From: a bacterium
GTDB taxonomy: Bacteria; Patescibacteriota; Patescibacteriia; JACPHY01
NCBI GenBank assembly: GCA_030647005.1
Contig: JAUSKG010000022.1
Span: 18,196-82,195 of the forward strand
Direction: 5' to 3'
DNA: 64,000 nt
Shown piece after piece: positions 1,378 through 42,400 of this stretch (position 1 is its first letter; each line of letters starts with the position of its first letter). The notes under the pieces are model-generated. The model saw only the letters and a list, made by a program, of their open reading frames with translations. It made no database searches and was not told where the DNA came from. The translations under genes were made by a program, and so were the position numbers.

Positions 1378-1623
1378 TCACTCGCTCGCCGATGTCGCCG
1401 CACGCTGCGCAAGCGTCGCCCATACTATCGGGTACGACACCATCGCGATGATCTCGGCATCCGTGAATACGACTCCATACCGCTGCTCAATAGTGGTGAC
1501 GAGCGATAAGTGACGCAACGAATCCCATACCGCAACCGTTTCCATCGCGGTCGCCGTACCGATATCCGCCACGTCAACCCCGAGCACCGATGCGAAAAGC
1601 TGTTTAAGTTCTTGTTCCTGCAT
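1378..1623 (-). CDS. acyl carrier protein (ACP-like, ~81 aa)
   Basis: MQEQELKQLFASVLGVDVADIGTATAMETVAVWDSLRHLSLV... is a phosphopantetheine attachment site (D-S-L). The true start is the internal M of ORF 1378..1836 and overlaps the end of the upstream FkbH-like gene. Confidence 0.7.
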   Translation of the reverse strand: MQEQELKQLFASVLGVDVADIGTATAMETVAVWDSLRHLSLVTTIEQRYGVVFTDAEIIAMVSYPIVWATLAQRAATSASE

Positions 1624-3448
1624 AGTGTACGGTGACGTACGGGACCGAATTGATGGTATCTGACGTGCAATCCAATGCGTACCGACGGGCACCGTCGTAC
1701 ACATCCACCCGCATGAACCCGAGACGGTCGTAAAAATCGGCGGCAGGCGCGTTCTTCGCGGAGGAGACGTATGAAGATCGCACCAGTCGCACCCCTTCCG
1801 CGCGAAGCACATCAACGATACACCGCGCGAACGCATATTCCAATGAGCGACCGATCACGCGACAGCTCATGAGGAATGTGTCGAAGTCGGCAACGTCACG
1901 GTCAATCCGTACAATACAGCATCCCGTCACTCCATACTCGCCGAACCGATCTGCCGCGTCGAACGTAAAGCACCGATACGCGGGATTGGCAACAAACGAC
2001 GTTATCTCGCCTTCCGTGTAGCGCTTCGTCGTGCAATTGAATTGGTTCGTTTTCTGAGTAAGCTGCACCATGCGTGGAATCAGCCGCGCGTCATCTACAC
2101 GCACAACGATGCGGAGATCAAGCGATTGCAGAAATTGCTCCGTGCTGACAAAGGACTGCTGTGCGACATTGCGCTGCTCCTCTACACGATACTGCTCCGT
2201 TTTCTGCGTATCCTCTATCGTCACCAAGCGACGATCGAACAACCGCGCAACTGCACGCATGCGTTGTGGATACTCGTGCAGCGCAAGAGGCACCTGCACC
2301 GCCGTCACTTCCGGGCACACCGCACGCACATGTGCAATCTCCACACTCGAATCGTCAATAAATACAACGCTCTCTAACCCCACATGGAGCGTCGAGGCAA
2401 TCGCGCGAAGGTTCGTCACTTTATCCTCCCAGTTCACCAGCTTCGCGGCAATATGTTCATCCCGCAGCACCATGTGCGGGTGTGCCCGAAGCACCGCATC
2501 GACATCTTCAGGATTGTTCTTGCTCGCAAGTGCGATGAGTACTCCACGGCGCTCAAGTGCGCGTGCGAGGTACTGTACCTCTGTATACATCGCACCGTGT
2601 GCAGTCGCAGGATCAAGCGTAATACCATCCACACCGTCCTCCCCCACCGCACCACCCCATAACGTACCGTCACAATCAAAAACGATGACCTTCTTCACAT
2701 CGCCACGCATGGCCCGAATCATTGGCACGAGACGCGCTGCATACGCATGAGCGAATGTCGGTGTATACGGTGCCAATGCGGAAGCGTAGAATCGTCGGTC
2801 GAGGGCGGTCGCGGTCCCAATCTCGGAAAAAATATTATCCACGGACACCGTGACGACATTGGGCAACGCTACGGCAGCAAGGTGCCGATTGAGACGCGCA
2901 GCAAGTTCCTCCAGGCGCCGATCACCTACTACCGCGAGCGAAAAAGCTGTTGCGGTAAACTCATGTACGATCACGAGCGGCACGCGGGCAAGTGACGAAA
3001 GCACCGTATGAAGCGTCTGCTCCGTATGCACTGCCAACGCCTCAACCGCGTCATCGGACATCATTGCAATACGATAGTGAAAACCGCTCGTGAGCCGAGC
3101 GAGCTCCCACCAAAGGATGACGCACGGCACATCACCAATGTGCGCACTCTCCTGCACGAACGCATCGAGACCGCCAGCCCGACATCGCGCAGGCACGCCA
3201 ACAGAGCGTAAATGATACTCGATAATATCAAAAAGCGGAGCAGTGATAATATTGCTCAAAACAGTAATGTCATACGCGCTTGCATCCGTAATCAAACGCC
3301 CGAGCGATCGGTTACGATCCATGAGCGCATCCAACGGAACGAGGGCATCAAATGGCGTGTCTTCATGCATACGAACGCACCGCACGCTGTGCAGTGGTTG
3401 CCTGACGAGCACTGCGAACCCTGTACGCGATCGCGTATGCAATCGCAT
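1604..3448 (-). CDS. FkbH-like HAD-superfamily IIIC phosphatase/acyltransferase (614 aa)
   Basis: KVIVFDCDGTLWGG HAD motif I; size and architecture are typical of the FkbH family. It sits immediately upstream of the ACP. Confidence 0.7.
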   Translation of the reverse strand: MRLHTRSRTGFAVLVRQPLHSVRCVRMHEDTPFDALVPLDALMDRNRSLGRLITDASAYDITVLSNIITAPLFDIIEYHLRSVGVPARCRAGGLDAFVQESAHIGDVPCVILWWELARLTSGFHYRIAMMSDDAVEALAVHTEQTLHTVLSSLARVPLVIVHEFTATAFSLAVVGDRRLEELAARLNRHLAAVALPNVVTVSVDNIFSEIGTATALDRRFYASALAPYTPTFAHAYAARLVPMIRAMRGDVKKVIVFDCDGTLWGGAVGEDGVDGITLDPATAHGAMYTEVQYLARALERRGVLIALASKNNPEDVDAVLRAHPHMVLRDEHIAAKLVNWEDKVTNLRAIASTLHVGLESVVFIDDSSVEIAHVRAVCPEVTAVQVPLALHEYPQRMRAVARLFDRRLVTIEDTQKTEQYRVEEQRNVAQQSFVSTEQFLQSLDLRIVVRVDDARLIPRMVQLTQKTNQFNCTTKRYTEGEITSFVANPAYRCFTFDAADRFGEYGVTGCCIVRIDRDVADFDTFLMSCRVIGRSLEYAFARCIVDVLRAEGVRLVRSSYVSSAKNAPAADFYDRLGFMRVDVYDGARRYALDCTSDTINSVPYVTVHYAGTRT

Positions 3449-3782
3449 GCTGGTCGCAATGAGCCATGCTCACACTCACCGTTATACCCACTGCCGCTGG
3501 ATGGTTGATACGCACCGTCGGCGCTCCACTCGCTCCACGAACAATCTCAATACGTGCAAGAGGTATCGGCTGACACCCAAGAGCACCAAGGGCCTTCACC
3601 ACCGCCTCCTTTGCACTAAACCGCGCAGCAAGACGCTGCGCGGCAGGTTGCTGCGCGTACGCATCCGCAAGCTCCCCCACCGTGAAGATGCGCGCGAGCA
3701 TTCGACCATCACGCGCGCGATCAAGCTCGTAAAACCGCGCAATGGCGACGATATCAACGCCGGCACCAACCTGCGATCGCAC
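3363..3782 (-). CDS. 4'-phosphopantetheinyl transferase (AcpS-type)
   Basis: GAGVDIVAIARF ... FSAKEAVVKALG AcpS motifs. The start is probably the GTG/V about 13 nt after the GNAT stop; the ORF-track N-terminus is likely spurious. Confidence 0.6.
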   Translation of the reverse strand: MRSQVGAGVDIVAIARFYELDRARDGRMLARIFTVGELADAYAQQPAAQRLAARFSAKEAVVKALGALGCQPIPLARIEIVRGASGAPTVRINHPAAVGITVSVSMAHCDQHAIAYAIAYRVRSARQATTAQRAVRSYA

Positions 3783-3792
3783 GGACGTCCGC

Positions 3793-4440
3793 TCAACGTG
3801 TGAGCGGGTCCACTCCTGAAGCGTGCGGAGGGTCCACTCCCGCTTGGTTCGTGGCTTGATGGGCATAATATTCACGATCAAGTAATCCGAAGAGATGGAC
3901 ATCGTGGTAGCTCCCATCTTTAAACACCTCACTGCGCCGCACGCCTTCATGCTGAAACCCAAGTGTGCGGCAGTACAATTGTGCGACTGCCTCTGATAGG
4001 GAACCGCCACCCACTCTGTGCATGTGTAATCCATTGAATGCATGCGCAAGTATGAGTTGGTGGGATTCTACAAAATTGCCAAGGTTACGATGCGTACGCT
4101 CACCAATCACGACCGCAATGGCGCACGTTTGATGGAACCAATCAATCGTATCGAGGGAAATAATCCCGATCAACACCGCGCTCGCTCGGTGCACGATGCC
4201 AAGCTGCAACTTCGTGCGGTTCCCAGCGATCGCCTCACGAAAGTATACACGCTGCGCCTCTCGAGTATTGGGAACATAGCGCTGCTGCATCGCAGCAGTC
4301 GTATCTGGATCGTTGAACCAACGATACCAATTGGTACGATCGATGAGGTCCTCGTCCATCGCGACAAGGTCGATGCTCTTGCCTGTAAGAAACACGTCGT
4401 ATTGTAGAGTATCCATACCAGCAATAGCATTCCTCACCAC
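3793..4440 (-). CDS. GNAT family N-acetyltransferase
   Basis: RimL-like GNAT fold signatures (…AIAVVIGERTHRNLGNFVESHQLILAHAF…). Confidence 0.6.
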   Translation of the reverse strand: MVRNAIAGMDTLQYDVFLTGKSIDLVAMDEDLIDRTNWYRWFNDPDTTAAMQQRYVPNTREAQRVYFREAIAGNRTKLQLGIVHRASAVLIGIISLDTIDWFHQTCAIAVVIGERTHRNLGNFVESHQLILAHAFNGLHMHRVGGGSLSEAVAQLYCRTLGFQHEGVRRSEVFKDGSYHDVHLFGLLDREYYAHQATNQAGVDPPHASGVDPLTR

Positions 4441-5783
4441 GCACGATGCCCAGATTGCTCCCCCGTCAACGCACGCTCCCCCGTGATCGCCCGCCGATGC
4501 AGGAAGACCTTTTCAAACGCCGCGACGATGTCATCGAGGTCCTGCCGCGAGAGTCCGGGGTGCATGAGTTCACTGATAAAAAGATCCGATGCGTGCATAC
4601 GCTCGGCAACGGGACAGCTCCCCGCTGCGTACGTCGCGAGCGCGCTCGGATGTGCGAGCGTGAACGGGTATCCACTGCGGCCGAATGCGATGCGCCGCTG
4701 AAAGAGGGGCAATTGATAGAGTGGTGTGCAGTACCCTCCCCATATTCGCACGCCGAGGTCCTCGTGGTTTTTGGTTGGAGCCAGCTCAGCGCGCACCGCG
4801 TCGAGGAATGCATCACGCGAGCACCCGGCAACGTCGCTCCGAAATAGGAACGGCTGCTCATAATACACGTGGACCGCATCGGGCCGAGCGACCGCCGGCA
4901 TCAGTGCAGGAATCGTACGCAGGCGCTCGGTGAGGTATGCGCAATTGTCGAGCCGCTCCCGCACGAACGCATCGAGCTTCCGGAGCTGACATCGGCTGAT
5001 CGCCGCCTCTACTTCCGTCATGCGAATGTTGCACCCAACCATGTTCACGAGATCTGTCTCGCCTTTGTCACCCACCACCGCCTCCGCGTGATTGCGGATG
5101 AGTCGCACGCGGTTTGCGAGCGCATCATCATCGGTCACGACGACCCCTCCCTCCCCGGCCTGGATGTGTTTATGGCAGTTGAGCGAGAAGACGCCAACGT
5201 CGCCGAGTGTACCCGCATGGCGTCCACGATAGCGCGCGCCGGGTGCCTGCGCCGCGTCCTCAATGACGATGAGGTGATGCTCACGCGCAATCGCGGCGAT
5301 GACATCCGCATCGTATGGCTGCCCGAAAAGGTCTACCACGATGATCGCTTTCGTTCGCGGCGTGATCCGTGCGCGCACGGATGCAGGATCGAGACAAAAA
5401 TACTCTGGCTCGATGTCCGCAAACACGGGGATACCGCCGTACCAGAGTGGCACCGTCGCAGACGCGCTCATGGTGTACGGGGAGACAATCACCTCATCGC
5501 CCGGGCTGATCCCCGCTGCCCCCACCGCAGCCATGAGTCCCGAGGTGGCAGAGTTCACCGCGATCGCGTGGCGCACGCCGAATCGCTGCGCCCACTCTTC
5601 CTCGAGCGCACGCACTTCCGGGCCGCCAAAAAACCGCGCATCCCACGAGCCGAGGAACCCGGAGAGCGTACCGCTCTCGAGCACACGCGCGACTGCCGCC
5701 TGTTCCTCCGCGCCGATGGTGCGATAATCGGGAAACGGGTGTCGCCGGACCGGAGTGCCGCCATGGAGTGCGAGTATTGACAT
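4434..5783 (-). CDS. DegT/DnrJ/EryC1/StrS-family PLP-dependent sugar aminotransferase
   Basis: AIAVNSATSGLMAA...GDEVIVSPYTMSASA...FSLNCHKHI (Lys in HK) are typical of DegT. Confidence 0.8.
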   Translation of the reverse strand: MSILALHGGTPVRRHPFPDYRTIGAEEQAAVARVLESGTLSGFLGSWDARFFGGPEVRALEEEWAQRFGVRHAIAVNSATSGLMAAVGAAGISPGDEVIVSPYTMSASATVPLWYGGIPVFADIEPEYFCLDPASVRARITPRTKAIIVVDLFGQPYDADVIAAIAREHHLIVIEDAAQAPGARYRGRHAGTLGDVGVFSLNCHKHIQAGEGGVVVTDDDALANRVRLIRNHAEAVVGDKGETDLVNMVGCNIRMTEVEAAISRCQLRKLDAFVRERLDNCAYLTERLRTIPALMPAVARPDAVHVYYEQPFLFRSDVAGCSRDAFLDAVRAELAPTKNHEDLGVRIWGGYCTPLYQLPLFQRRIAFGRSGYPFTLAHPSALATYAAGSCPVAERMHASDLFISELMHPGLSRQDLDDIVAAFEKVFLHRRAITGERALTGEQSGHRAW

Positions 5784-5795: not shown

Positions 5796-6818
5796 CTATC
5801 CGTTCCTCAACACGACTCGTTTCCCATCCTTTTGCGCGCTCTGCTCAAGTGCACGAATCACCATGAGGACGCGGAGTGCATCCTCGCCTGTGCTCACCGG
5901 CACATCCCGCCCCTCAAGGCAATCCACGATGTGCGGGAGGACAGGCGTAAGGAAGCTCCGTGGCGGGCCGACGCGCTTCACGCGCTCGTCGTTGAGCTCT
6001 CGGTAGCTCGAATACTCATCGCTCGCACGGGTGCCGATGATCTCGATGGTCAGCCCCGACTCATGCTTGAGATTCATGCGCCCCTTCTCACCAAAAAAAC
6101 TCATCTCGGAGAGCGAATACTGTGCCGAATCAAAATACTGCAACGCCGCAGTGGCCCCGTCAAATCCGAGCAGCGCATCCACGCGCACATCGTGCGGATC
6201 GCGCGGATACACGGTGCTAGGAACCGCACTCACCCACCGCACGTTCCCAAGAAAATACCGCAGGAGATCAATGAAATGCGTACCCCCATGGTACAGTCCC
6301 TTATCGTACGACGCAACCGCCATGCGCACGGGCCCGAGGAACGTATCACGCACGTATCCGCCGCGGAGATTCTCGCGGAACTTCCGAATCCACGGATCAA
6401 ACCGGCGGCTGTGATTGACAAAAAGCGGAACTCGGTACGTCCGGCAGGCGCGAATGGCCTCGCGCGCCTCCTGCACATCGTGCGCAATCGGTTTCTCGCA
6501 GAGGATCGCCTGTACGCGGTGCTTTGCGGCGAGCCGCACCAGTGCGCAGTGCGATTCCGGGGACGTCGCGATGATGACAATGTCGGGTTGAACGGTCACG
6601 AGCATCCGCGCGATGTCCGAGAAGCGCGGCACATCGGGATAGAGCTGCTTCGCGCGCGCGAGCGATCGCCGATCCGTATCCGCGAGTGCCGCGAGTGACG
6701 TGCGCCGATACATCGTCGCGGCCTGCGCGTGGCTCGCCGGCGCAATACGCAACGGATCGAGCTGCGCACCGAGCCCAATCCATCCGCATCCAATAACCGC
6801 GACCGTATATTTTTTCAT
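5796..6818 (-). CDS. Gfo/Idh/MocA-family NAD(P)-dependent oxidoreductase
   Basis: N-terminal Rossmann MKKYTVAVIGCGWIG; conserved EKP motif (ILCEKPIA). Confidence 0.75.
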   Translation of the reverse strand: MKKYTVAVIGCGWIGLGAQLDPLRIAPASHAQAATMYRRTSLAALADTDRRSLARAKQLYPDVPRFSDIARMLVTVQPDIVIIATSPESHCALVRLAAKHRVQAILCEKPIAHDVQEAREAIRACRTYRVPLFVNHSRRFDPWIRKFRENLRGGYVRDTFLGPVRMAVASYDKGLYHGGTHFIDLLRYFLGNVRWVSAVPSTVYPRDPHDVRVDALLGFDGATAALQYFDSAQYSLSEMSFFGEKGRMNLKHESGLTIEIIGTRASDEYSSYRELNDERVKRVGPPRSFLTPVLPHIVDCLEGRDVPVSTGEDALRVLMVIRALEQSAQKDGKRVVLRNG

Positions 6819-7594
6819 ACCGTGTACCCCACGCGATTGATGTCCGGCTGCTGTGCCGATGTAAAAATCTCGGGGTGCGCATCCGCGAGCGCAAGGACGT
6901 CATCAATGTCAAAACTCGAATCTGTGGAATGGAACCGTTCGTAGATCGCCCGCATCATGCCGAGATCTGCTGGAGTATCAAGGAGGAGCGTAAGTGCGGG
7001 GCGATGGTATTGCGGCGGTGCAGTGTAGCGATAGATGGAAAACGCGTCCGAGTGATTCCGAATGAAGTAGTTCACGTGCTCGAAGTTATCCAGATTGTTC
7101 CGGTGTGGCTCCTCCTGTGCCATCGCATGCGCGCGTTGGAGCGCAGGGAAGCGCACCACCTGCACATCAATACCCTGTGGGAAGGTATCCTCAAGACAAT
7201 TGGAGAGGAAGTCGCACCTCCGTGCAAAGAATGCTGCAACCCCGCGATCAAGCACCATCGGCGAGATACACGGGCAATCCCCCGTCACGAGGACGAGCAC
7301 ATCCGCGCCCGCCGATGCGCCAGCACCAACGACGCGCCCGAGGACATCGGTCTCGCTCCCGCGGAACGTGCGCGCGCCAAACCGCTCCGCGATAGCGATA
7401 ATGGCATCATCGCGTTGCTCGGTGCTCGTCGCCACCACCACTTCATCAATCCGCTGTGCGCGCTGGACGCGCTCGATCACCGCGCCGAGTGCTGGCAACC
7501 CTGGGAGAAGCTCCAGGGCCATCTTCCCGGGAAGTCGCGTCGCGCCCATCCGCGCTTCGATCGTGGCAACAACCTTCGACATACTCACGCGCAC
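6815..7594 (-). CDS. CMP-sugar cytidylyltransferase (NeuA/SpsF-like) 1
   Basis: VVATIEARMGATRLPGKMA N-terminal cytidylyltransferase motif. Confidence 0.7.
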   Translation of the reverse strand: MRVSMSKVVATIEARMGATRLPGKMALELLPGLPALGAVIERVQRAQRIDEVVVATSTEQRDDAIIAIAERFGARTFRGSETDVLGRVVGAGASAGADVLVLVTGDCPCISPMVLDRGVAAFFARRCDFLSNCLEDTFPQGIDVQVVRFPALQRAHAMAQEEPHRNNLDNFEHVNYFIRNHSDAFSIYRYTAPPQYHRPALTLLLDTPADLGMMRAIYERFHSTDSSFDIDDVLALADAHPEIFTSAQQPDINRVGYTV

Positions 7595-15330: not shown

Positions 15331-16038
15331 TCAATGAACGCTGTGGGTGCCCCCACGCTCGCCTTCGGGCACCATCGCAAGGATTTCCTCGTAATGGTAT
15401 GCGGTGTGCGAACGCTCCATCTGCTGCACGATCCGCACGAAGCGCTCCCAATCCTCCACCGTATCCACCGCGAGCTGCGCAGTACTGTTATCGTGCGACG
15501 CGCTGAAGTTCTTGATGCGGAACTCCTCTGGGTGCTGATAATAGTACCGCGTAACATGCTCGCGATCCAACGGATCCGTCATGCGCACATGCGCGCGTCG
15601 GAATGGCTCCGTGCGCACAACCTCCACGGAAACGCCCACGGGAAAACTCCGCGGAAACGTGTTCGTGACAAGATCATACTCGCTACCGCGAAACAATGCC
15701 ACCGCAGTCGAAATGACCGCAGGATCAGTGAGCGGGCTATCCCCGCACACGCGCACGAATGCGTCGAATTCGTGCGCGTCCGCAGCGGCAAAAAATCGCC
15801 CAGCGACGTCCACAAGTGAACCACGGAAGCACGGAATGCTCTTGTCCGCACAGAACGCAGCGATGGGATCATCGCTCGTTTCGTCCGACGTTGCCACGAT
15901 CACACCATCCACGCCGTGCGCAAGTGCAACACGCTCAAGTGTGTACAGAAGCATGGGCTTCCCCCCAAGGTCACGGAGCACCTTCCCCGGCAACCGTTGC
16001 GAGCTCATCCGTGCTTGAACGATGATGCCGATCGTCAT
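15331..16038 (-). CDS. CMP-sugar cytidylyltransferase (NeuA/PseF-like) 2
   Basis: MTIGIIVQARMSSQRLPGKVL motif. ATGA overlap with the upstream methyltransferase. Confidence 0.7.
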   Translation of the reverse strand: MTIGIIVQARMSSQRLPGKVLRDLGGKPMLLYTLERVALAHGVDGVIVATSDETSDDPIAAFCADKSIPCFRGSLVDVAGRFFAAADAHEFDAFVRVCGDSPLTDPAVISTAVALFRGSEYDLVTNTFPRSFPVGVSVEVVRTEPFRRAHVRMTDPLDREHVTRYYYQHPEEFRIKNFSASHDNSTAQLAVDTVEDWERFVRIVQQMERSHTAYHYEEILAMVPEGERGGTHSVH

Positions 16039-16943
16039 ACGTATGTTTGTGGTGCGGCTGGTACCGCAACCCCTTCGGGATAATATGCAACCGTTTCTGC
16101 ATGCCACCGCTCGAAAAAATTCTGCACCGCACGGTAATCGTCGCCAGTCCAAGGGATGGTTTCGTCGACATCGCGCCGCTCCGCGATCATACACAGAACG
16201 TCATGATCAATGTAGCGATTCGTCTGTCGCACCGCGAAGTGCGCAGTAGCGAGCTGTGCCGTGAGCGTCTGGGCGCTCCACCGGAACGCGTGACTATCCG
16301 CAGCACGACCCCCGAGGTAGTAGTGGAGCGGCTTCTTGAATGGGACGAAAATGCGACTGCCCGTTGCCACCACCACCTGCCCACCGGGCCGCAACATCCG
16401 GTGTGCTGCCGCGAGCATCGCGCGCGGCGACTGACAATTCTCCATGGTCCACGCGATGACCGCGATATCATACTGCCCTGCGGATGTTCCGCTTGCCGCA
16501 TACTCCTCAATGGTGCCACGGAAATTGGGAATACCAAGGGCTGTCATGCGCGCACAGTTCGCGCGCGACGGCTCAATACCAAACACGGCGGCTCCGTACT
16601 CCGACTGCCGGAGCATCTCGAGGAATACCCCCTCCCCTGCACCGATGTCGCACACACGCTTCCCCTGCAGCCCCCCGAGCTGCTCCGCCATGAACGCCGC
16701 GACGAACGTGAGCCGCGCCCGCACTGCCGGTAGGAGCGCGGTGTACCCGTTCCCATAAATCTGCTCTGACCACTCATCCGCAATCGCGCCCGCGGAGCGG
16801 CGTTGCTTCACATACACAAACCCGCACTGTATGCAGATATGAATCGGCTGCCCGCCCGTGTATTCGCGCGCATGCGGAACCTCCACGGCATCCGTGGTAC
16901 CACAAATGTCACAGGGAAAATCCATTGGGTCAGATTGGGACAT
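16035..16943 (-). CDS. class I SAM-dependent methyltransferase with N-terminal Zn-ribbon
   Basis: CDICG...CIQCG Cys pairs; VCDIGAGEG SAM motif I. Confidence 0.7.
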   Translation of the reverse strand: MSQSDPMDFPCDICGTTDAVEVPHAREYTGGQPIHICIQCGFVYVKQRRSAGAIADEWSEQIYGNGYTALLPAVRARLTFVAAFMAEQLGGLQGKRVCDIGAGEGVFLEMLRQSEYGAAVFGIEPSRANCARMTALGIPNFRGTIEEYAASGTSAGQYDIAVIAWTMENCQSPRAMLAAAHRMLRPGGQVVVATGSRIFVPFKKPLHYYLGGRAADSHAFRWSAQTLTAQLATAHFAVRQTNRYIDHDVLCMIAERRDVDETIPWTGDDYRAVQNFFERWHAETVAYYPEGVAVPAAPQTYV

Positions 16944-17082: not shown

Positions 17083-18252
17083 TTACACTGGCGGAAACCG
17101 CAGCTGCCATTCCCCTCCCTCCTGCTTCCAAATCTCGGCATTTCGGTGCCGGTCAATGAGCGCGGTGAACTCCTGATCCGTGAGGTGGAGGTACGCGAGC
17201 ATGTCCTGGTAGTACCGCGCAGGAAACTCATGATCGTATGCGCGTGCGTGCGCGAGTCCCCGCTCCCGCGTGAGTTGCTTGTTCTGGATCATGCGACTCG
17301 CATCGCGTATCGCGCGGCCAAAACCAAACTTCACGTACTGCAGGTAGTAGTAGAGGTTGTCCGATTTGTCATCCAACGAATCAAAGTCCGTGAATGTTCC
17401 CTCCGTGCGCCCCTCGGCACACGTCTGAAAATCAATCTTATCCTTGATGTATTCGTAATTCTCAAAGCTGCTCCACTTGAAGAAATACGCGAAGTAGTAT
17501 GCGCGCACGCCGACGCGCTGGATGTCCTGGATGGCAGGATACCGATACGGGTTGAGGTCACGCTCCGTCACCACGTCATCCACCCAGTTGCGCGGATCGT
17601 CACCAATTTGATGCTCGATAACCTCGGTAAAATCCCGCACTTTCGCAGAATCCTCACGAAGCACCTTGCCGCCGTACTCGCTCTCGCCGTGCTCGGCGTA
17701 CAAAACGAGCGGGATGCCGTACCGCACCGCGGCCTGTACTGGCGTTGCGTTGATACCCGCATCCCACGCAATCTTATGATTGCCGCGCTCCAGAAAGAAT
17801 CGCCGCGCGAGATGCCGGTGGATACGCTGATCTGGACGAAGGAGATGATGATCAAACCCCGCCTGAATCATCGCCTCGTAGTTGTGCAGACCGACAGCCG
17901 TCGGAAGTTGTGGCGAGAACGTGACGAGGAGCGGATTCATCCCAAACTCATGCTTGAGCTTGTACGCGATGGCACTGCTGTCCTTCCCACCGCTCCACGG
18001 CACGATGCAATCCCACGATCCATCGTCCGCACGGTACTGATCGAGCAACGCGAGAAACTCCGCACGCCGCGCCGCCCAATCAATGCCATCCCACTTCCGC
18101 TCCGCATACCGACATGCATTGCACACGCCCTCTGCATCAAAAACGATGCGCGGACGCGAGTTGGGCATGACGCAACGCGTACAGTACTGAATCGTGCGGC
18201 CCCCATGTGCTGCGATGTCTTGCCGCGTGTGCGATGTGATCGTCATGTCCAT
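17083..18252 (-). CDS. N-acetyl sugar amidotransferase (WbuX/PseA-like PP-loop ATPase)
   Basis: YCTRCVMPNSRP...CNAC Zn-ribbon followed by SGGKDS PP-loop. Start trimmed to MDMTITSH. Confidence 0.8.
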   Translation of the reverse strand: MDMTITSHTRQDIAAHGGRTIQYCTRCVMPNSRPRIVFDAEGVCNACRYAERKWDGIDWAARRAEFLALLDQYRADDGSWDCIVPWSGGKDSSAIAYKLKHEFGMNPLLVTFSPQLPTAVGLHNYEAMIQAGFDHHLLRPDQRIHRHLARRFFLERGNHKIAWDAGINATPVQAAVRYGIPLVLYAEHGESEYGGKVLREDSAKVRDFTEVIEHQIGDDPRNWVDDVVTERDLNPYRYPAIQDIQRVGVRAYYFAYFFKWSSFENYEYIKDKIDFQTCAEGRTEGTFTDFDSLDDKSDNLYYYLQYVKFGFGRAIRDASRMIQNKQLTRERGLAHARAYDHEFPARYYQDMLAYLHLTDQEFTALIDRHRNAEIWKQEGGEWQLRFPPV

Positions 18253-18256
18253 ACAG

Positions 18257-19003
18257 TTACACGCGCACCGAAATCCCCGCCTTCGCAAGGTACGCCTTCG
18301 CGCTATGGATACTCGGCTCCGTGAAGTGATAAATATTCGCAGTGCACACCGCGGACGCATGGCCGTCGCGAAATCCGTCCACAAAATCCTGCCACTTGCC
18401 CGCGCCACCGCACACGAGTACCGGAACGTCCACGGCATCGGCGACGAGCTGGTTCAACGTATTGTCGTAGCCCTCCAATGACCCGTCCTTCTCCATGGAG
18501 GTGATCATGACCTCCCCCGCTCCGCGCGCTTGCGCTTCTCGCGCCCACGCCGCTGGATTGAGCCCTGTCGGTTGCGTCCCACACTCGGTATACACCTCGT
18601 AGGTCCCCTGCGCATTCCGCCTCGCATCCAAAGAAACAACGACGCACTGCGCTCCGTATGCCTGTGCGATCTCCGTGATAAACCCAGGCCGTTGCACTGC
18701 CACCGAATTCACCACCACCTTGTCGGCACCGCTCCGCAGGAGCTGCTGCACATCCTCCATCGTACGCACTCCGCCGCCCGCTGCCAATGGCACGAAACAG
18801 CGCTCCGAGAATTGCTCCACCACTGCAAGAAAATGCTCACGCACACCCAACCCGGGACGGGTGATATCGAGGAGCACCACTTCATCTACAGACCATGCGT
18901 CCACAAAACTCGCCGTGTAGCGGTAGTCCGGTTGAAACTCCTTCGTCCGAAACAGCACGCCGTCATTGAACGTAAGGACGGTGACAACACGATTACGCAA
19001 CAT
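18257..19003 (-). CDS. imidazole glycerol phosphate synthase cyclase-subunit homolog (HisF/WbuZ-like)
   Basis: Full-length HisF-like (beta/alpha)8 signature (…VPLAAGGGVRT…VVNS…). Confidence 0.85.
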   Translation of the reverse strand: MLRNRVVTVLTFNDGVLFRTKEFQPDYRYTASFVDAWSVDEVVLLDITRPGLGVREHFLAVVEQFSERCFVPLAAGGGVRTMEDVQQLLRSGADKVVVNSVAVQRPGFITEIAQAYGAQCVVVSLDARRNAQGTYEVYTECGTQPTGLNPAAWAREAQARGAGEVMITSMEKDGSLEGYDNTLNQLVADAVDVPVLVCGGAGKWQDFVDGFRDGHASAVCTANIYHFTEPSIHSAKAYLAKAGISVRV

Positions 19004-19625
19004 ACGAGCGCGCAGGCATTTGCAACAAAAAATTCTTCAGGAACTGCAATCCATGCTGCTGACTCTTCTCCGGATGAAACTGTGTTGCGACAATGTTTTT
19101 TTGCTGGAACGCGGCCGTGAAACGCGACCCGTACTCGCATTCCCCCACAACGATTGTGGAATCATCGCATCGAATGTGAAAACTATGGACATAATAAAAC
19201 AGCGCGTCGGTAGGAATGCCATCAAACAGCGGGGACTGTTGCGTGCGGATGCAATCGTTCCATCCGACATGCGGCACGCGCAGCCCATCCGGCGGCGCAA
19301 GGCGTACTACATCCGCAGCGATCCATCCCAGTCCTTCATGGTGACCAAATTCCTCACTCGATCGCGCGAAAAGCTGCGCGCCGAGGCAGACGCCAAGGAT
19401 GGGTTTCTGCTGGTGCAAGATGAGATCGGTGAGCGGCTCCACGAGATTACGCGTGCGGAGATTCGCCATGCCATCGCCAAACGCGCCCACGCCCGGCAGG
19501 ATGAGCGCCTCGGCGCGCTGCAGCTCTGCGGGGTCCGCCGTAACGATTGGCACGAACCCTACCCGCGCAACCGCCGCCGCGACCGAACGGATATTCCCGA
19601 GACCGTAGTCAATGATGGCAACCAT
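18993..19625 (-). CDS. glutamine amidotransferase HisH/WbuY-like
   Basis: MVAIIDYGLGNIRSV...GVCLGAQL (catalytic Cys)...FHPEKS. Confidence 0.85.
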   Translation of the reverse strand: MVAIIDYGLGNIRSVAAAVARVGFVPIVTADPAELQRAEALILPGVGAFGDGMANLRTRNLVEPLTDLILHQQKPILGVCLGAQLFARSSEEFGHHEGLGWIAADVVRLAPPDGLRVPHVGWNDCIRTQQSPLFDGIPTDALFYYVHSFHIRCDDSTIVVGECEYGSRFTAAFQQKNIVATQFHPEKSQQHGLQFLKNFLLQMPARSYVA

Positions 19626-19728
19626 ACGCGCACGACGGACGACACCGTATCTTGGACCAGCGTACCGCACGAGCGCGCGCCCGCAAGAGAAACGGACGGC
19701 CCATGAGGAGCCGTCCGTTCAGACACCG

Positions 19729-20637
19729 TCAGAACACAATGAAGATAATTGCGCAGCCCGCGATGCCGATGGCGAACCGTGCGTACACCCCGCGCCCGAG
19801 GCCCTGCGCCTCCTTGAACACGATGAGGCCGACCATGGTCGGAATCACCATTTCCGCGACCTGCTTGATCGGCTGGACGACGGTGATTGGTGCCAGCGAT
19901 TGCGACCACGTCCACATGAATAGTGCAATGGCAATCGTGGAAGCGAGGAGCAGCATACCGCGGATACCGCGCGCATCGAGCGGCGCTCCTGCTTCCGCAC
20001 GTCCGAGGAGGAACCGAATGCTCAACGCGCCGACGTATGACCCAAGGTACCACGCGGCGACGAAGCTCGGCACGGACACTCCCTCGAGCGCAAACACGCG
20101 CATGGCGAAGTGCCCGAATCCCCAGATGACGCTGTACCCCGCGATCCACAGCGCGAGCTGCTTCCATGGGAATGTCGCTGCAGGTACCGCTACACCATCT
20201 GCACCGCGATACCGCGCCACGGAGATTGCCGTGCCGCCAGCGATGGCAACCGCGACGCCGGTCGCAAGCAGTGCAGAGTCGGCGAGGTGCGCATACTCGT
20301 GGAGCACGAAGTACCCGAGTGCCATCGCGATGAAGTCGTCCGCCTGCGTGAAGAGGTATGTCCGACTCACGCTGATGTCCACGGCACGCCATTGACAGTA
20401 CGCGCCCAAGCTGTTCACGAATCCGATGGCACCGATTGCAAGGGTCCATGTCCCGACGATCGGCGCACCCACGATCCACGCGAACAGCACGGCGTAGCAC
20501 GCCGCAAACCCGAACATCCACACCATGCGCCGCGTCCGCGATGGAAGCCCTGTCGCACGCTTGATGAGGATTGGATTCACGACCATCGTGAAGAGTCCCA
20601 ACGATATCGGCAATTGCCAAGGAACCACTTCCATCAC
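19729..20637 (-). CDS. EamA/DMT-family 10-TM membrane transporter
   Basis: About ten hydrophobic helices across two halves. The overlapping 436-aa Arg-rich ORF on the same strand is spurious. Confidence 0.6.
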   Translation of the reverse strand: MMEVVPWQLPISLGLFTMVVNPILIKRATGLPSRTRRMVWMFGFAACYAVLFAWIVGAPIVGTWTLAIGAIGFVNSLGAYCQWRAVDISVSRTYLFTQADDFIAMALGYFVLHEYAHLADSALLATGVAVAIAGGTAISVARYRGADGVAVPAATFPWKQLALWIAGYSVIWGFGHFAMRVFALEGVSVPSFVAAWYLGSYVGALSIRFLLGRAEAGAPLDARGIRGMLLLASTIAIALFMWTWSQSLAPITVVQPIKQVAEMVIPTMVGLIVFKEAQGLGRGVYARFAIGIAGCAIIFIVF

Positions 20638-20702
20638 GCTTCCTCCTTTTCATGCGTTGCACCGCAACACACCAACCAACTATGATACTGCTGGATGCGC
20701 TG

Positions 20703-22295
20703 TCAATCGGACGACGGGAGGAGGTACCGATCGAGAAATGCCGTGTCGGTGGGATCGGCGGGCTGTGCGACCGCATCGCACAGCGCACGCGCATCGAATA
20801 CCACTCGCGCACGATCGTCGCAGGCCGCACGGACGATACGCACGCGCCGCGCAAGGAGCGCGAGCGCATCGGGGAATGGTGGTGCGGGGTCGCCGTCCAC
20901 CAACAGTGCCACTATCGGTTTGGTCGTGCAGAGTGCGATGGGAAACGCGGTGGTGCGCATGCTCCCGAATACGAACGCATCCGCGTGGGTATGCGCGGTG
21001 TGAAAGTCCTCCGCGAGCACCTCGGCGCGCCCATCAAACATCCCTCGCACTTCCGCGAGACGATCTGGGTGCGCCTTGTAGACAACACCGTACCCGGCAT
21101 CGCGGAGTGCTTCGATGATGCGGAGTTCGAGGTCCAACTGCTGGAGCCCAAGCGACGCGGCGGCAGTGTACTTACGTTGTGCGTTCTGCGGAAATCCGAT
21201 GACCATGACGCGACGGATGCGCGCCGCTGCAGGGACCGGGCGCATGCGCTGCCGGATTGCGCGATAGATACCGCTCACGCCCGATACAATTGTGAGCGGG
21301 TTTGGCACGATGGGAAGCCGCGCGCGATGGATGCGACGGCAGAGATCGGCACTCCCATCGGTGTAGGTGACGTAGGTATCCGAGAGCGCGAACTCGGACC
21401 ATGTTGGCATCGCGGTGTTGAAGAGCCCTACGAATCCCCCGTGCGCAGCCGTCATCACGCGCCCGCCACGCTCCCGCACGGCGAGCGCGAGTGCGCGTTG
21501 GCGATGCTGCGTCGCCGATCCAAGCGCAACGTGCGCGACGGCATGGGCTGCAACGAATGCGCGCATCTGCAGCAGCATGCGGACTGCATCCACGAGCATT
21601 GCGTCCGTCCGCGTACGGAGTACATCACGGAACGCATCATCGGTAGGAATCGCGTACTGCTGAGCGATACCGGTACACGCATCCACCAACGACGCGGCAG
21701 CGATGCGCAGGGCCGCGCGTACACCAACAGGACAATCGGGCATCGGGGGAAGCGCGTCGTTGTACAGCGTCCGAACCCACTCCGGGGTGTGCGCGAGGTA
21801 CTCCGCGAGAAGCGCATGCGGTGCTCCTGCAACCCATATCCGACGTTCGGAGCGGACGCGCGCCGCCATCTTCACCGCAGTTGCATTCGCGGCAATTCCG
21901 CGCCCCCATCGCACCAGCCGAACCGCAGGCACCATCCACACGGCGCGCGCGGCACCGACGGATGCCGTAAATGATGCGGCGTGCCCGAGTGCCTCCGCAA
22001 ACCACGCGGCGGCTGGCTGGCACACGGGCTCATGCCCCGCCGCACGCACGCGCACCACCACCGCGCGCGCGTGGAGCATGTGCACGAGCGTGACCGGAAG
22101 CTCGCGCGCGATGAGCAGCGCGGCACCGACATCCCCCGGCGTGGCGGCAATGGCGGATCGCACGGATCCTTCCACTGCATCGGCTAACGCAATAAATTCG
22201 TGGTCCGGGACGGGCCACGAGCATGTCTCGCGCCAGCGATCAACGCCGAATGCTTTCACGGAGCCGATGTCGAGGGGGAACTCGCGGGTTGCCAT
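20703..22295 (-). CDS. KpsC/KpsS-like (Capsule_synth-like) putative glycosyltransferase 2
   Basis: C-terminal VVYKAHPDRLAEV...ADAFVFGSMRTTAFPIALCTTKPIVAL resembles the K-x-HP retaining keto-sugar-acid transferase core. Assignment is weak. Confidence 0.4.
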   Translation of the reverse strand: MATREFPLDIGSVKAFGVDRWRETCSWPVPDHEFIALADAVEGSVRSAIAATPGDVGAALLIARELPVTLVHMLHARAVVVRVRAAGHEPVCQPAAAWFAEALGHAASFTASVGAARAVWMVPAVRLVRWGRGIAANATAVKMAARVRSERRIWVAGAPHALLAEYLAHTPEWVRTLYNDALPPMPDCPVGVRAALRIAAASLVDACTGIAQQYAIPTDDAFRDVLRTRTDAMLVDAVRMLLQMRAFVAAHAVAHVALGSATQHRQRALALAVRERGGRVMTAAHGGFVGLFNTAMPTWSEFALSDTYVTYTDGSADLCRRIHRARLPIVPNPLTIVSGVSGIYRAIRQRMRPVPAAARIRRVMVIGFPQNAQRKYTAAASLGLQQLDLELRIIEALRDAGYGVVYKAHPDRLAEVRGMFDGRAEVLAEDFHTAHTHADAFVFGSMRTTAFPIALCTTKPIVALLVDGDPAPPFPDALALLARRVRIVRAACDDRARVVFDARALCDAVAQPADPTDTAFLDRYLLPSSD

Positions 22296-24758: not shown

Positions 24759-25888
24759 ACGGATGCAGTGCGTATGGACGCCGGCTCGCGCCGCGCTTCC
24801 GACTGCGACGCGACGATTGCGGCGGTGTGCGCAGCGAACCGGAGCGCATGAAGAAAGAGCAGCGTGCTCGCGTGACGGAACGCAGTTGCCTCGCCATCCA
24901 CGAACTCCACCGCCCGCTCGTAGTTTGCGGACACGCCACGGAGGAGGCACTGCAGGTACGAGAGTCGAAACCGAAGGCGCATGCGTCCATCGGCAAACCG
25001 CGGATCGAGCGCGACGAGCGCATCGTCCGTCGGAGCAACGAATGGCGCAAATTGTTCGACGTAGTGGCGGTATGCAACTTCGGGCCAGAGGAACGTGATG
25101 CGGAAATCGGGCGCACCGGACGTGTAGAGCGACGAGCGGATGAGGTACTGCTGGTAATCCGCGGTGTCATGGGGGAACGTGTATGCGAACCGTGCGACGC
25201 CGTAGAGCGGATCCGCCGTCGCCATACGCACGTCCGGATCAATCACCCGAAACGCGGCGGCACGCGCGAGGTCTTCGAGCACAAGATTGTCGCCGTGGAA
25301 ATTCCAGTGGCCAAGGGATGCGATATCCGACGGCCCGGTGTCGAGTGCGCCCACCGCATTGGAGGTGAGGATGCGATCCACGAGCACGGCGAGCGGCGCG
25401 TACCGGACGCCGTCCAAGGTCACTCCGTCCGCAGCGAGGAGGTACGGAAACGGCTCCAATGCGCGGACGGCATCAAGCTCGCCGCGGAGCGCCGTGCGAA
25501 AATAGCGACCCGTTCCGCCGTCGTACGCGGGATCCGGACAATGCTCTGCGGCGATGTCGAGGAGCGCCGCGAGCACGGTGCGAAATGCAGCGGCAAGCTC
25601 GTCGGATGCCGTGAGCACGCTCTGCGTGTGCTCCGAAAACGTACGTCCGGCGAGCCGGGGCATGACGTAGGATTCTTTTCCGCGGAAGACCCCCGCAGTG
25701 CACACCCCCGCCGCGAGGATGGGCGGGAGCCGGTAACGGAGCGACGTATACGCACCGAGAGCGCGGATGCGTGCCACCTCCGCGCGGAGCTGCGCACCAT
25801 CGCCGAGCGCAATCTTCACGACGCGCTCACCGCCTGGCACACCAACCACCGCAATGCAGTACTTGTCAGACGATTTGAGAATGCGCAT
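24755..25888 (-). CDS. phosphotransferase (APH/choline-kinase-like) family protein
   Basis: HWNFHGDNLVL and VIDPD match the H-x-D catalytic loop and DxD motif. Confidence 0.5.
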   Translation of the reverse strand: MRILKSSDKYCIAVVGVPGGERVVKIALGDGAQLRAEVARIRALGAYTSLRYRLPPILAAGVCTAGVFRGKESYVMPRLAGRTFSEHTQSVLTASDELAAAFRTVLAALLDIAAEHCPDPAYDGGTGRYFRTALRGELDAVRALEPFPYLLAADGVTLDGVRYAPLAVLVDRILTSNAVGALDTGPSDIASLGHWNFHGDNLVLEDLARAAAFRVIDPDVRMATADPLYGVARFAYTFPHDTADYQQYLIRSSLYTSGAPDFRITFLWPEVAYRHYVEQFAPFVAPTDDALVALDPRFADGRMRLRFRLSYLQCLLRGVSANYERAVEFVDGEATAFRHASTLLFLHALRFAAHTAAIVASQSEARREPASIRTASV

Positions 25889-27080
25889 GCATGGGGGCAA
25901 CAGACGGCATCGTACGCGCGGCGCGCGACAGCGTCGTGAAACACTCGGGACGAGTAGCGGTGGTGAGGTACCGAACGGCGTCGAGCACACTCCGGCAGTA
26001 CCCGCGAACATTGTGCACATACGCTTGCACGAGCAGCTCGCTCACCGGGTTTCCACCGATCCCGAACGCATCATCGCTCCACTGGAGGAACCGCTCACTC
26101 GCAAGGACCACTGCGGATGCACGACATCGCTCAAACCCGCGGCTCCCGAGCGGCACATCCGCCATGCGCAGCGTGTGCGGGAGACGCACCGCAGTGTCCG
26201 CAAACGCCGCTGCGACATCGCGGTGCGTGATACGAACGCCGCTCGCGGTCCGGTAGCGGAGGAAAAATCGCGAGAGCTGGTACCCTGGCGGCATGATGAG
26301 CGTCCGAAGGGCGACGGTGTTCACGCCGGGCACTTCGGGAAAGAGTGTCGCCATCGCCATCTCGAGCTGCGAAAAACTCGGCCGGAGATTGTTCCGAGCA
26401 TCTTGGCTCCGCGCCTCAAATGATTTGGTCCCGAGGCGTCCGGTCGGTGTATCCGGGTGCACGATATCTACCTCGAGCCGACGGATATCCCACTGGGAGA
26501 CATCCATGCGCTCCGCGAGTTCGAGTAGTCCGCGGAGTTGCGCCGCCCACCCGTTGCTCTGACAAGACCCCAGTGCGAAGACGCGATCCGCACCAATCGA
26601 CCGCAACGGGTTCGGGAGGAACCGCGACGGCGCGCCGATGAGGTTGATGTACAGCGACGGGAGCTGTGCTGCCTCGGCAACGCCCACAACGAATCGCGCC
26701 ACGTCCGTGAACCGGCGGATGACGGCGTCGTCCCCGATCTCCTTCTTTGAAGTCGCCAGGATCGCAACGGCGTACCGCTCGCCCAGTGCAGTGAGGTCCG
26801 CCGTCTGGCTATCGCCCCACACAACACGAATGAGATGACCGCGGACGACGAGCGCCTGCTGCACGCGATCGACGCGGACGACATCAAGAAGCTCCGGCTC
26901 CGCGAGCACAATGCGCGCGTAGAGGGCATCGAGCGCATCGAGGTGCGGGTGCTTTGTATCGCCCTCAATGGGATGCGTCAGGATCGTCGTGATGCGGAAG
27001 CCGTCTGCCGCGGGATCGTTCATCGCAACGAGCGACGCGCCGATTTCGGCACCGCAGCCAATGAGGAGGACACGGTTCAT
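25866..27080 (-). CDS. GAPDH/semialdehyde-dehydrogenase-like NAD(P)-binding dehydrogenase
   Basis: N-terminal VLLIGCGAEIG Rossmann; GSCQSNGWAAQL resembles the catalytic Cys loop (SCTTNCLAP) of GAPDH/ASADH. Confidence 0.45.
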   Translation of the reverse strand: MNRVLLIGCGAEIGASLVAMNDPAADGFRITTILTHPIEGDTKHPHLDALDALYARIVLAEPELLDVVRVDRVQQALVVRGHLIRVVWGDSQTADLTALGERYAVAILATSKKEIGDDAVIRRFTDVARFVVGVAEAAQLPSLYINLIGAPSRFLPNPLRSIGADRVFALGSCQSNGWAAQLRGLLELAERMDVSQWDIRRLEVDIVHPDTPTGRLGTKSFEARSQDARNNLRPSFSQLEMAMATLFPEVPGVNTVALRTLIMPPGYQLSRFFLRYRTASGVRITHRDVAAAFADTAVRLPHTLRMADVPLGSRGFERCRASAVVLASERFLQWSDDAFGIGGNPVSELLVQAYVHNVRGYCRSVLDAVRYLTTATRPECFTTLSRAARTMPSVAPMHAHSQIV

Positions 27081-29184: not shown

Positions 29185-29963
29185 ACAATACCCGTTGCTC
29201 CGGGAGCAGTAGTATTCATATACCACGCCCTGCCGACGCCAGCATCAATCCAATTATTCACCCGATTGATCTCCGGATGCGCGTCAAGGAAGGATATGAT
29301 GCGCGGGAAGTCCAGCGGTACCGCTGGCGACAACCCAATCCCCGCATAGATGGCCCGCATCACCACCAAATCCTCCGGCCAATCCACGGTGAGCCGATAC
29401 CGCTGCGGATCAATGGACAGCGGTGCGGGATGGTTCATGACGTGAAATTCCTCCGGATGTTCACGGATGTAAAGCCCGCAGAGCTCGCTCCGATGCCGCT
29501 CGTCCCCCTTTTCCCACGATGCGCGCAGGGCATCGGTACGAATAATCTGAAATGATGCCCCATCCGGCAACCCGAACACCCCAGAATAATCCAAGGCGTG
29601 CTCCTGATGGTACTGCCACACGCTCGGTAAACACCCGAGATATGGAAATGGACTCTCCGTCGTCACACGGAACACATGATCCGCACCCACGCGCTCGGCC
29701 CCCAGGATGAGCCGACGCAATACATCACGCTCATCGCCAACCACAAATGGGATCCCATACGCTGCGCTCTTCTGCCGATACACCGCGTTCTCTTCGCGCT
29801 CGGAAATACAGAGCACGATGTCGTCAATCTCGAGCCGCTGCTGCAGCTGCGCAACGAGATAATCGAGAATCGAAACGCCGCGCTCCACGTCGAGGTTCTG
29901 GAGTGGCTTCGCATACAATCGCGACGACTGGTTGCGACACGCGAGGATGGCGGCAAGTTTCAT
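29181..29963 (-). CDS. cytidylyltransferase-like (SpsF/NeuA family) 3
   Basis: MKLAAILACRNQSSRLYAKPL cytidylyltransferase N-terminal motif. Confidence 0.65.
   Translation of the reverse strand: MKLAAILACRNQSSRLYAKPLQNLDVERGVSILDYLVAQLQQRLEIDDIVLCISEREENAVYRQKSAAYGIPFVVGDERDVLRRLILGAERVGADHVFRVTTESPFPYLGCLPSVWQYHQEHALDYSGVFGLPDGASFQIIRTDALRASWEKGDERHRSELCGLYIREHPEEFHVMNHPAPLSIDPQRYRLTVDWPEDLVVMRAIYAGIGLSPAVPLDFPRIISFLDAHPEINRVNNWIDAGVGRAWYMNTTAPGATGIV

Positions 29964-38425: not shown

Positions 38426-42400
<3,975 letters not shown>

Follow-up and report, generated by a model that had tools for sequence, protein, structure and literature searches.

A candidate glyceryl-ACP module of the FkbH type in a nonulosonic-acid gene cluster of a Patescibacteriota bacterium

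We analyzed a 64,000-nucleotide stretch of contig JAUSKG010000022.1 from a bacterium of the Patescibacteriota (hereafter, the window), focusing on a three-gene module near its beginning. The module encodes an AcpS-type 4'-phosphopantetheinyl transferase (PPTase), an FkbH-like protein, and a stand-alone acyl carrier protein (ACP). An earlier note on this DNA had proposed that the module supplies glyceryl-ACP for the N-acylation of an amino-nonulosonic acid, and all three genes were found on the minus strand at the positions it gave (Table 1). The stop codon of the PPTase gene and the ATG of the FkbH-like gene overlap by 8 nt. The ATG of the ACP gene overlaps the end of the FkbH-like gene by 20 nt, in line with the coupling described in the note. 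For the FkbH-like gene, the ATG at 3370 is a likelier start than 3448, which agrees with an identical 588-aa database protein (P0001) derived from a metagenome-assembled genome and labelled "HAD-IIIC family phosphatase [bacterium]". The PPTase start near 3782 was backed by the orthologue in a related locus (L083), which is 74% identical and aligned from residue 2.

Table 1. Coordinates of the module and of other features of the window
Feature	Position	Strand	Remarks
Stand-alone ACP	1378..1623	(-)	81 aa; Pfam PP-binding above cut-off
FkbH-like protein	1604..3370	(-)	588 aa; longest open reading frame reaches 3448; TIGR01686 match
AcpS-type PPTase	3363..3782	(-)	~139 aa; PF01648 and TIGR00556
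GNAT, Acetyltransf_3 type, distantly PseH-like	3793..4440	(-)	PF13302; candidate acyl-ACP:amino-sugar N-acyltransferase
DegT/PseC-type sugar aminotransferase	4434..5783	(-)	PF01041, 287 bits; would supply the acceptor amine
Next operon gene, 5' part, 456 codons	1..1368	(-)	possible KpsC/KpsS-like ulosonic-acid transferase; cut by window start
SAM (S-adenosylmethionine)-dependent methyltransferase	16035..16943	(-)	Methyltransf_23, 59.6 bits
Divergent GAPDH-superfamily dehydrogenase	25866..27080	(-)	404 aa; invariant Cys173 in G-S-C-Q-x-N-G-W
NeuB-family synthases (three)	10744-9410, 29226-28156, 31114-29960	(-)	annotation of window genes
CTP_transf_3 cytidylyltransferase-family genes (three of four)	6815-7594, 15331-16194, 29181-29963		in co-directional cluster
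WbuX-type N-acetyl sugar amidotransferase with HisF- and HisH-like genes	17083-19670	(-)	WbuX 330 bits
AsnB-like gene	9405-7585	(-)	window annotation

The FkbH-like open reading frame (ORF) contained the motif VIVFDCDGTLWGG and matched the NCBIfam 'FkbH domain' TIGR01686 with 239.4 bits (cut-off 146.65; E = 5e-71) over profile positions 2-320 of 323, so that the FkbH assignment of the note held over nearly the full length of the profile. It also matched the HAD-IIIC family TIGR01681 (64.6 bits; cut-off 35.75); Pfam alone gave weak HAD matches. The protein is built of three domains. It begins with an SGNH-like domain, which is followed by a HAD-IIIC phosphatase domain (Asp232, Asp234, and Thr236) and by a C-terminal acyltransferase domain, the GNAT fold of which was visible in the structure model and which carries an invariant Ser-Cys503-Arg (S502-C503-R504; Cys codon 1862-1864). 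The HAD motifs D232-C-D234-G-T236, S283-K-N-N, K317, and D339-D340 were invariant or nearly so in homologues and common to four polyketide-type FkbH enzymes. An alignment of these four reference proteins (341-359 aa, taken from plasmids) with 11 glycan-cluster proteins showed 26 invariant columns, including all HAD motifs, T-N-Q-x-N, and S-C-R. The catalytic Cys was assigned by this conservation across the polyketide and glycan types, as the literature search turned up no paper that identifies it. The C-terminal acyltransferase-like domain and its Cys, on which the note had made its proposal depend, were thus both present, and the Cys is shared with polyketide-type FkbH.

The FkbH-like protein could be aligned end to end with a 359-aa FkbH homologue from the NRPS/PKS (nonribosomal peptide synthetase/polyketide synthase) cluster of the Bacillus thuringiensis plasmid pBMB422 (26% identity, E = 6e-33), which we take to be ZmaN of zwittermicin. 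It also aligned with three FkbH genes in canonical methoxymalonyl cassettes, in which a 3-hydroxyacyl-CoA dehydrogenase, an ACP, an acyl-CoA dehydrogenase, and FkbH lie beside a type I PKS. Whereas polyketide FkbH proteins show a two-domain architecture of ~340-370 aa, the protein of the window has 588 aa and includes an extra N-terminal domain, which is also found in BF1531 of Bacteroides fragilis. This SGNH/GDSL-esterase-like domain (~225 aa; window ~2700-3370, minus strand) is probably non-catalytic, because none of its residues was invariant across 23 homologues. It did not match Pfam FkbH_N (PF21211), although more distant homologues do. The structure of BF1531 (PDB ID: 3slr) comes from structural genomics and covers the N-terminal part of an uncharacterised FkbH-like protein, in a construct without the GNAT-fold half; a literature search on BF1531 returned no paper.

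The ACP matched Pfam PP-binding (PF00550) with 25.9 bits (cut-off 20.8). Its phosphopantetheine-attachment residue is Ser35 in W-D-S35-L (codon 1519-1521), and W-D-S was kept in 61 of 63 homologues, so the protein has the conserved Ser whose lack would have spoken against the proposal of the note. In the PDB, the putative ACP 2lml matched best, and it shares the WDSL motif. A dedicated stand-alone ACP is the partner expected of the FkbH family, and the window has one. The PPTase matched both Pfam ACPS (PF01648; 59.3 bits, cut-off 25) and TIGR00556 (65.1 bits, cut-off 45.35), and its best PDB relatives were holo-ACP synthases (E ~5e-13). Because it scored under the species-specific AcpS equivalog cut-offs, it is a divergent, probably dedicated copy.

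Upstream of the PPTase gene lie genes for a GNAT and a DegT/PseC-type aminotransferase. The GNAT scored 41 bits against PF13302 (cut-off 25.4) and 36.7 bits against the PseH family TIGR03585, below the cut-off of 93.1; it thus appears to occupy a PseH-like position without being a PseH equivalog. The block DegT-GNAT-PPTase-FkbH-ACP was kept in the 78%-identical relative L083 and in an identical 12.6-kb contig (L092), and may form a self-contained unit that N-acylates an amino sugar, a reading that we hold at even chances for the proposed chain as a whole. GNATs homologous to that of the window flanked FkbH/ACP in L061, L084, and L083, and in L020 by way of L061 (28-32% identity, E 1e-16 to 1e-22). 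The methyltransferase and the GNATs mentioned in the note were also present in the window. The methyltransferase was distantly similar to methyltransferases beside FkbH/ACP in L020, L083, and L061 (E 1e-6 to 1e-10), and might O-methylate the acyl group or a sugar. Of the O-methylation suggested in the note, the gene therefore stands, and its O-methylating role is a possibility.

We then scanned one genome per species for relatives of the FkbH-like protein and counted neighbours, grouped by de novo clustering, at the 80 best loci, all from different species. Of the 600 stretches to which the scan extended, 597 encode relatives, so that the FkbH-like family occurs in at least 597 species genomes, among them those of bacteria, archaea, and organisms of the candidate phyla radiation (CPR), and the pair is not peculiar to the window. 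In 67 of the 80 loci, the FkbH-like gene had an ACP gene of the same orientation directly next to it; an ACP gene was present somewhere in 72, and most loci without one were truncated contigs. A PPTase gene was adjacent in ~10 loci, seven of them archaeal or CPR. Frequent neighbours were FabG-like short-chain dehydrogenases/reductases (SDRs) with or without MaoC (31 loci), VOC/glyoxalase-like proteins (25, in 17 immediately upstream), NeuD/PglD-like hexapeptide acyltransferases (17), FabH-like proteins (11), and methyltransferases (11), and a family reading as AAC(3)-type N-acetyltransferase directly followed the ACP gene in 13 loci. Within 5 kb of the FkbH gene, MaoC/SDR occurred in 32 loci, VOC in 27, and DegT aminotransferases in 10. 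At least one candidate N-acyltransferase was encoded within 5 kb in 36 of the 48 loci with full flanks, and NeuB within 10 kb in ~6 of the 80.

Several of these loci are operons for nonulosonic acids. In Melioribacter roseus (L061), the order is PseB, PseC, PseG-like, methyltransferase, Acetyltransf_3 GNAT, VOC, FkbH-like, ACP, PseI, and, further on, PseF, with the GNAT standing in the place of PseH. In Clostridium moutaii, FkbH/ACP is followed by MaoC, an Acetyltransf_3 GNAT, PseF, and PseI, with a Maf (MptE-like) gene upstream. The acidobacterial locus L084 shows MaoC-SDR, FkbH-like, ACP, Acetyltransf_3 GNAT, and cytidylyltransferase, with NeuB further on. The homologous GNATs in nonulosonic-acid clusters and the position of the M. 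roseus GNAT are the main basis for our proposal that the GNAT of the window would act as the transferase and that the DegT product would be its acceptor.

Other loci suggested other transferases. On a pSymB-type replicon of Sinorhizobium meliloti (L087:8042-13077), genes for an MBOAT-family protein, a protein annotated as a TonB-dependent receptor, an ACP, and a 628-aa FkbH-like protein lie beside rkp capsule export genes. The arrangement recalls Dlt-type O-acylation, with the FkbH-like enzyme taking, by analogy, the role of the adenylating ligase. Given the ACP adjacency and the varied transferase neighbours across loci, the FkbH/ACP pair has the appearance of an acyl-donor module that serves glycan clusters in general and is combined with different transferases. 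A match on a Ralstonia megaplasmid was considered as a link to EPS I, an exopolysaccharide reportedly containing an N-3-hydroxybutanoyl sugar, and was discarded; it lies in a PKS-like context and not in the eps operon, and says nothing either way. Another non-polyketide context was seen on a Streptomyces goshikiensis plasmid (L002:4936-7077), where the gene for a 713-aa FkbH-like protein lies among genes for a UDP-glucuronate decarboxylase, a GNAT, two ATP-grasp proteins, and cysteine synthesis.

Thirty-three genes of the same orientation, overlapping or separated by small gaps, extend from 37565 down to 1378 and include the module of the window. Counting those listed in Table 1, this run holds genes for a PseB-like dehydratase, four CTP_transf_3 proteins, four DegT aminotransferases, GNATs, an ATP-grasp protein, and two formyltransferase-like proteins (12045-10915, and 23995-22256 with a long N-terminal extension). 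The region is a very large nonulosonic-acid cluster, and its gene content bears out the context assigned to the module in the earlier note. The three NeuB and four CTP_transf_3 genes imply that two or three nonulosonic acids or ulosonic-acid variants would be made from this one locus. Sets of WbuX, HisF, and HisH are linked to the formation of acetamidino groups on amino sugars. Because neither flagellin nor Maf genes were seen in the window, a capsule-like target seems likelier than a flagellar one.

The operon extends past the ACP gene, with a further minus-strand gene beginning at 1368, 10 nt beyond the ACP stop codon; accordingly, no terminator signal is found 3' of the ACP gene, where a terminator/promoter scan and an Rfam scan detected nothing. 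This gene is complete on the identical contig L092 (4996-6582), where it encodes 528 aa with an identical translation, and matched Capsule_synth (PF05159) with 17.5 bits, under the cut-off of 20. On L092, it is followed by genes for an ABC transporter, a FemAB-like protein, a GNAT, a PIG-L protein, and a GT2 glycosyltransferase.

Some further proteins of the region were recorded. An 841-aa fusion (33988-36513, minus strand) combines a DegT/PseC-type aminotransferase (residues 14-386) with a class-III aminotransferase (residues 438-753). In the sugar cluster, the ORFs 19559-20869 and 20703-22295 (both minus strand) had no Pfam or NCBIfam match, and the ORF 32945-33991 (minus strand) had no match in the Pfam search. 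Just upstream of the cluster, a 1439-aa protein (38426-42745, minus strand) contains eight MopE-type 'putative metal-binding motif' repeats (242 bits).

Next, we focused on the GAPDH-like protein, which the earlier note had suggested as a source of 1,3-bisphosphoglycerate (1,3-BPG) for the FkbH-like protein. The ORF 27080-25866 had no match in Pfam, NCBIfam, or PDB sequences, the GAPDH, ASADH, and ArgC families included. It had the two-domain fold of GAPDH, and a nucleophilic Cys stands where the helix of the catalytic domain begins; the call was therefore right at the level of the fold, and the proposed supply of 1,3-BPG was not upheld. No GAPDH-like homologue was encoded within 10 kb in any of the 80 FkbH/ACP loci, and the protein also occurs without FkbH, so that it was rejected as a general FkbH partner on its distribution. 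The two genes share a cluster in the window and L084 only, and we consider their functional link weak.

The GAPDH-like gene belongs instead to a conserved cassette (28159-24036, minus strand) encoding an ATP-grasp protein (PylC-like N/ATPgrasp_Ter), the GAPDH-fold protein, a protein of ~370-420 aa with a weak APH-like match only, and an SDR. The same four genes occur in L084 (8916-12977), and in both loci they directly follow a NeuB gene. The last three genes recur in L086 (10001-13009) without ATP-grasp, NeuB, or FkbH. In Geoalkalibacter sp. (L085:5979-11179), the gene for a GAPDH-fold homologue lies 28 bp after ATP-citrate lyase genes, and its surroundings hold no glycan genes. ATP-citrate-lyase-like genes (45252-47282) and a citrate-synthase-like gene (38423-37575) are present in the window as well. 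The joint occurrence of GAPDH-fold and ATP-citrate lyase genes may be a coincidence or a hint of a central-metabolic role.

In known systems, FkbH-like enzymes and stand-alone ACPs turn 1,3-BPG into the glyceryl-ACP needed for methoxymalonyl extender units and tetronates (PMC7489565). The polyketide and tetronate enzymes, such as FkbH/FkbJ of FK520 and Mad7/Mad8 and Mad14/Mad12 of tetromadurin, share with the window the HAD-IIIC and GNAT-fold domains, the catalytic motifs, the Cys in S-C-R, and a dedicated adjacent ACP. They differ in that the FkbJ-type ACPs examined carry F-V-S-S and the ACP of the window W-D-S, and in that the FkbH-like protein of the window has the additional SGNH-like domain and is accompanied by DegT and GNAT proteins rather than by FkbK/FkbI/FkbG, FabH-like, or PKS proteins.

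Another parallel is found in Campylobacter jejuni 11168, in which the flagellin carries di-O-methylglyceroyl derivatives of pseudaminic acid (Pse) that require cj1295 (PMC3068675), and in which cj1302, a gene with an fkbH domain, and the ACP gene cj1299 are part of the flagellin glycosylation locus (PMC7099621; PMC6109747). C. jejuni and the window thus both have an FkbH-domain gene and an ACP gene inside a nonulosonic-acid locus (PMC7099621; PMC6109747). The reported oxonium ions of m/z 391 and 317 differ by 74, which by our arithmetic fits a replacement of acetyl by dimethylglyceroyl (values of PMC7099621 and PMC3068675). The two strains without dimethylglyceroyl-Pse, 12661 and 12664, have lesions at this place: one carries cj1302 as a pseudogene, and the other lacks the adjacent cj1301, annotated as an epimerase (PMC7099621). 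The authors did not connect these cj1301-cj1302 lesions with the missing glycan (PMC7099621), and cj1295 alone has been linked experimentally to the modification (PMC3068675). If cj1301 is assumed to be a VOC-type epimerase, the order cj1301-cj1302 would match the VOC-FkbH order of the 17 loci described above. The known C. jejuni product has an N-acyl group derived from glyceric acid, whereas the product of the window is a prediction, and the C. jejuni locus serves flagellin glycosylation, whereas the context of the window is capsule-like, with an ABC transporter gene in L092 and no Maf or flagellin gene seen. The C. jejuni region presumably also holds fabH2 and a second ACP gene.

Tannerella forsythia ATCC 43037 produces Pse5Am7Gra (7-N-glyceroyl pseudaminic acid), which is modified already at the stage of the CMP-sugar (PMC5420450) and is a proven member of the product class predicted for the window. 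The genes for N-glyceroyl modification are stated to be unknown (PMC5378307; PMC5420450; PMC6388019), and the ORFs Tanf_01195, 01205, 01210, 01220, and 01230 of the T. forsythia Pse locus were dismissed as having no part in carbohydrate metabolism (PMC6120980). Our full-text search of about 8 million papers found no paper linking FkbH/ACP to glycan acylation and three that name both FkbH and polysaccharide, although a closed-access description is possible.

The earlier note had called an ACP-tethered route undescribed for sugars, which overstated its novelty: LpxA and LpxD of lipid A biosynthesis acylate sugars from acyl-ACP, and the C. jejuni locus has the same gene types. DltA/DltC/DltB likewise represent carrier-protein-dependent acylation of a glycopolymer. 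These systems have in common with the window that a carrier-borne acyl group would pass to a sugar or glycopolymer, and the MBOAT variant of S. meliloti comes near to the Dlt logic. Their donors are fatty acyl or D-alanyl groups loaded by fatty acid synthase or an adenylating ligase, whereas a glycolysis-derived glyceryl group and other transferase families are proposed for the window.

Taken together, these data led us to the following model. The AcpS-type PPTase would convert the ACP to its holo form at Ser35. The FkbH-like enzyme would then take 1,3-BPG and form an acyl-enzyme on Cys503 in the GNAT-fold domain, the HAD domain would remove the 3-phosphate, and the glyceryl group would be passed to the thiol of the ACP, as is accepted for the FkbH enzymes of polyketide pathways. 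The adjacent PseH-like GNAT would use glyceryl-S-ACP instead of acetyl-CoA and acylate the amine installed by the DegT aminotransferase on a nucleotide-linked 6-deoxy-amino-hexose, the precursor of a nonulosonic acid of the cluster. The resulting N-glyceroyl nonulosonic acid, possibly O-methylated later, would be CMP-activated and transferred. That the FkbH-like protein and the ACP make an acyl-ACP used to acylate a glycan appears quite probable to us; for the complete chain from the PPTase through the FkbH-like protein and the GNAT to an N-glyceroyl nonulosonic acid, the case for and the case against are about equal. We infer from the genes that 1,3-BPG is the substrate, glyceryl the product, and the GNAT the transferase, and likewise the acceptor and the position acylated. 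The N-glyceroyl product named in the earlier note is plausible, since N-glyceroyl and di-O-methylglyceroyl pseudaminic acids exist, and its acyl group and acceptor remain at the level of prediction.

Several points weigh against this model. The organism is known as a metagenome-assembled genome, and the case is built from its genes. The GNAT falls below the PseH cut-off, its use of acyl-ACP being a proposal, and the presence of three NeuB paralogues with several aminotransferases and acyltransferases makes the acceptor ambiguous. The correlation in C. jejuni concerns two strains, which differ in other genes as well. Identity to the polyketide FkbH enzymes is 24-29%, and with such low identity and the extra N-terminal domain, the substrate of the FkbH-like protein could differ. 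The SDR/MaoC, VOC, and FabH-like neighbours at other loci suggest that the ACP-bound group is often modified before transfer, and an SDR of the FabG-like type is encoded in the cluster of the window (24950-24036). The last two points, together with the frequent methyltransferase neighbours and the methyltransferase of the window, lend some substance to an alternative that we regard as rather unlikely yet worth keeping in view: loading would proceed as proposed, and the group reaching the sugar would not be plain glyceroyl, being tailored on the carrier by oxidation/reduction, dehydration to pyruvoyl or lactyl, epimerisation, methylation, or condensation, or derived from a different phosphorylated acyl donor. 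However, VOC, MaoC, and FabH genes are not present in the window, the SDR, homologous to those of the other loci, is encoded 20 kb away in the other conserved cassette, and all catalytic residues common to the 1,3-BPG-using FkbH enzymes are kept. To our knowledge, no common metabolite other than 1,3-BPG combines an acyl phosphate with a phosphate ester, as the two catalytic domains require.

The acyl-ACP could also serve elsewhere, in O-acylation of a finished glycan, on another sugar or a peptide stem, or on the lipid or linker of a capsule-like polymer. The S. meliloti pair with its membrane O-acyltransferase points in this direction, as do the possible KpsC/S-like gene and the ABC transporter, FemAB-like, and GNAT genes that follow the pair here and in L092, and the rarity of NeuB near the pair. 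We nevertheless consider such a use improbable for the window, which has no MBOAT gene and in which the overlaps tie the pair to DegT and a PseH-like GNAT, a combination that recurs inside Pse operons. Since HAD phosphatases occur in some ulosonic-acid pathways and Pfam alone gives weak HAD matches, the FkbH-like protein might be solely a phosphatase of a nonulosonate-9-phosphate or sugar phosphate, with the ACP and PPTase unrelated to it. This seems very improbable in view of the entire FkbH domain, including the GNAT-fold half with its invariant Cys, and of the adjacent and often overlapping ACP genes elsewhere; NeuB-type synthases are also not known to yield phosphorylated products. The combination of FkbH, ACP, and PPTase is typical of polyketide and tetronate pathways (PMC7489565), and the trio could be a fragment of one lying beside sugar genes by chance. 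We give this hardly any credence: the gene annotation of the window shows no ketosynthase, PKS, NRPS, or FkbK/FkbI-type dehydrogenase, a FabH-like query had no match in the window, the trio overlaps with sugar-pathway genes in the co-directional run, and the three-domain architecture of the FkbH-like protein is that of the BF1531-like subfamily of glycan clusters.

How flagella, S-layers, and capsules act as antigens, are recognized by phages, and interact with the immune system is determined by the N-acyl decorations of their pseudaminic and legionaminic acids. The question of which genes produce the glyceroyl-type decorations was described as "a major challenge" by the groups working on T. 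forsythia (PMC5378307; PMC6388019), and the locus described here and its relatives provide specific, testable gene candidates for N-glyceroyl nonulosonic acids. The window itself is one more member, known from sequence, of a widespread FkbH-like/ACP group. More tentatively, and at somewhat less than even chances, the three-domain FkbH-like protein and the W-D-S ACP may be a general, unrecognised acyl-donor module that diverts 1,3-BPG to a carrier-bound glyceryl group in bacteria, archaea, and CPR organisms, and that serves nonulosonic acids and other sugars through PseH-like GNAT, NeuD/PglD-like left-handed β-helix, AAC(3)-like, FemAB-like, and MBOAT transferases. Such a module would account for the pseudaminic acids with N-glyceroyl in T. 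forsythia and with di-O-methylglyceroyl in C. jejuni, and the GAPDH-fold family of the window and L084 could then be a dedicated supplier of the acyl phosphate. If the proposal is true, glycan biosynthesis would gain a new activated acyl donor, the large group of "HAD-IIIC family phosphatase" proteins encoded in those 597 or more species genomes would receive a function, and there would be a handle for engineering modified sialic-acid mimics.

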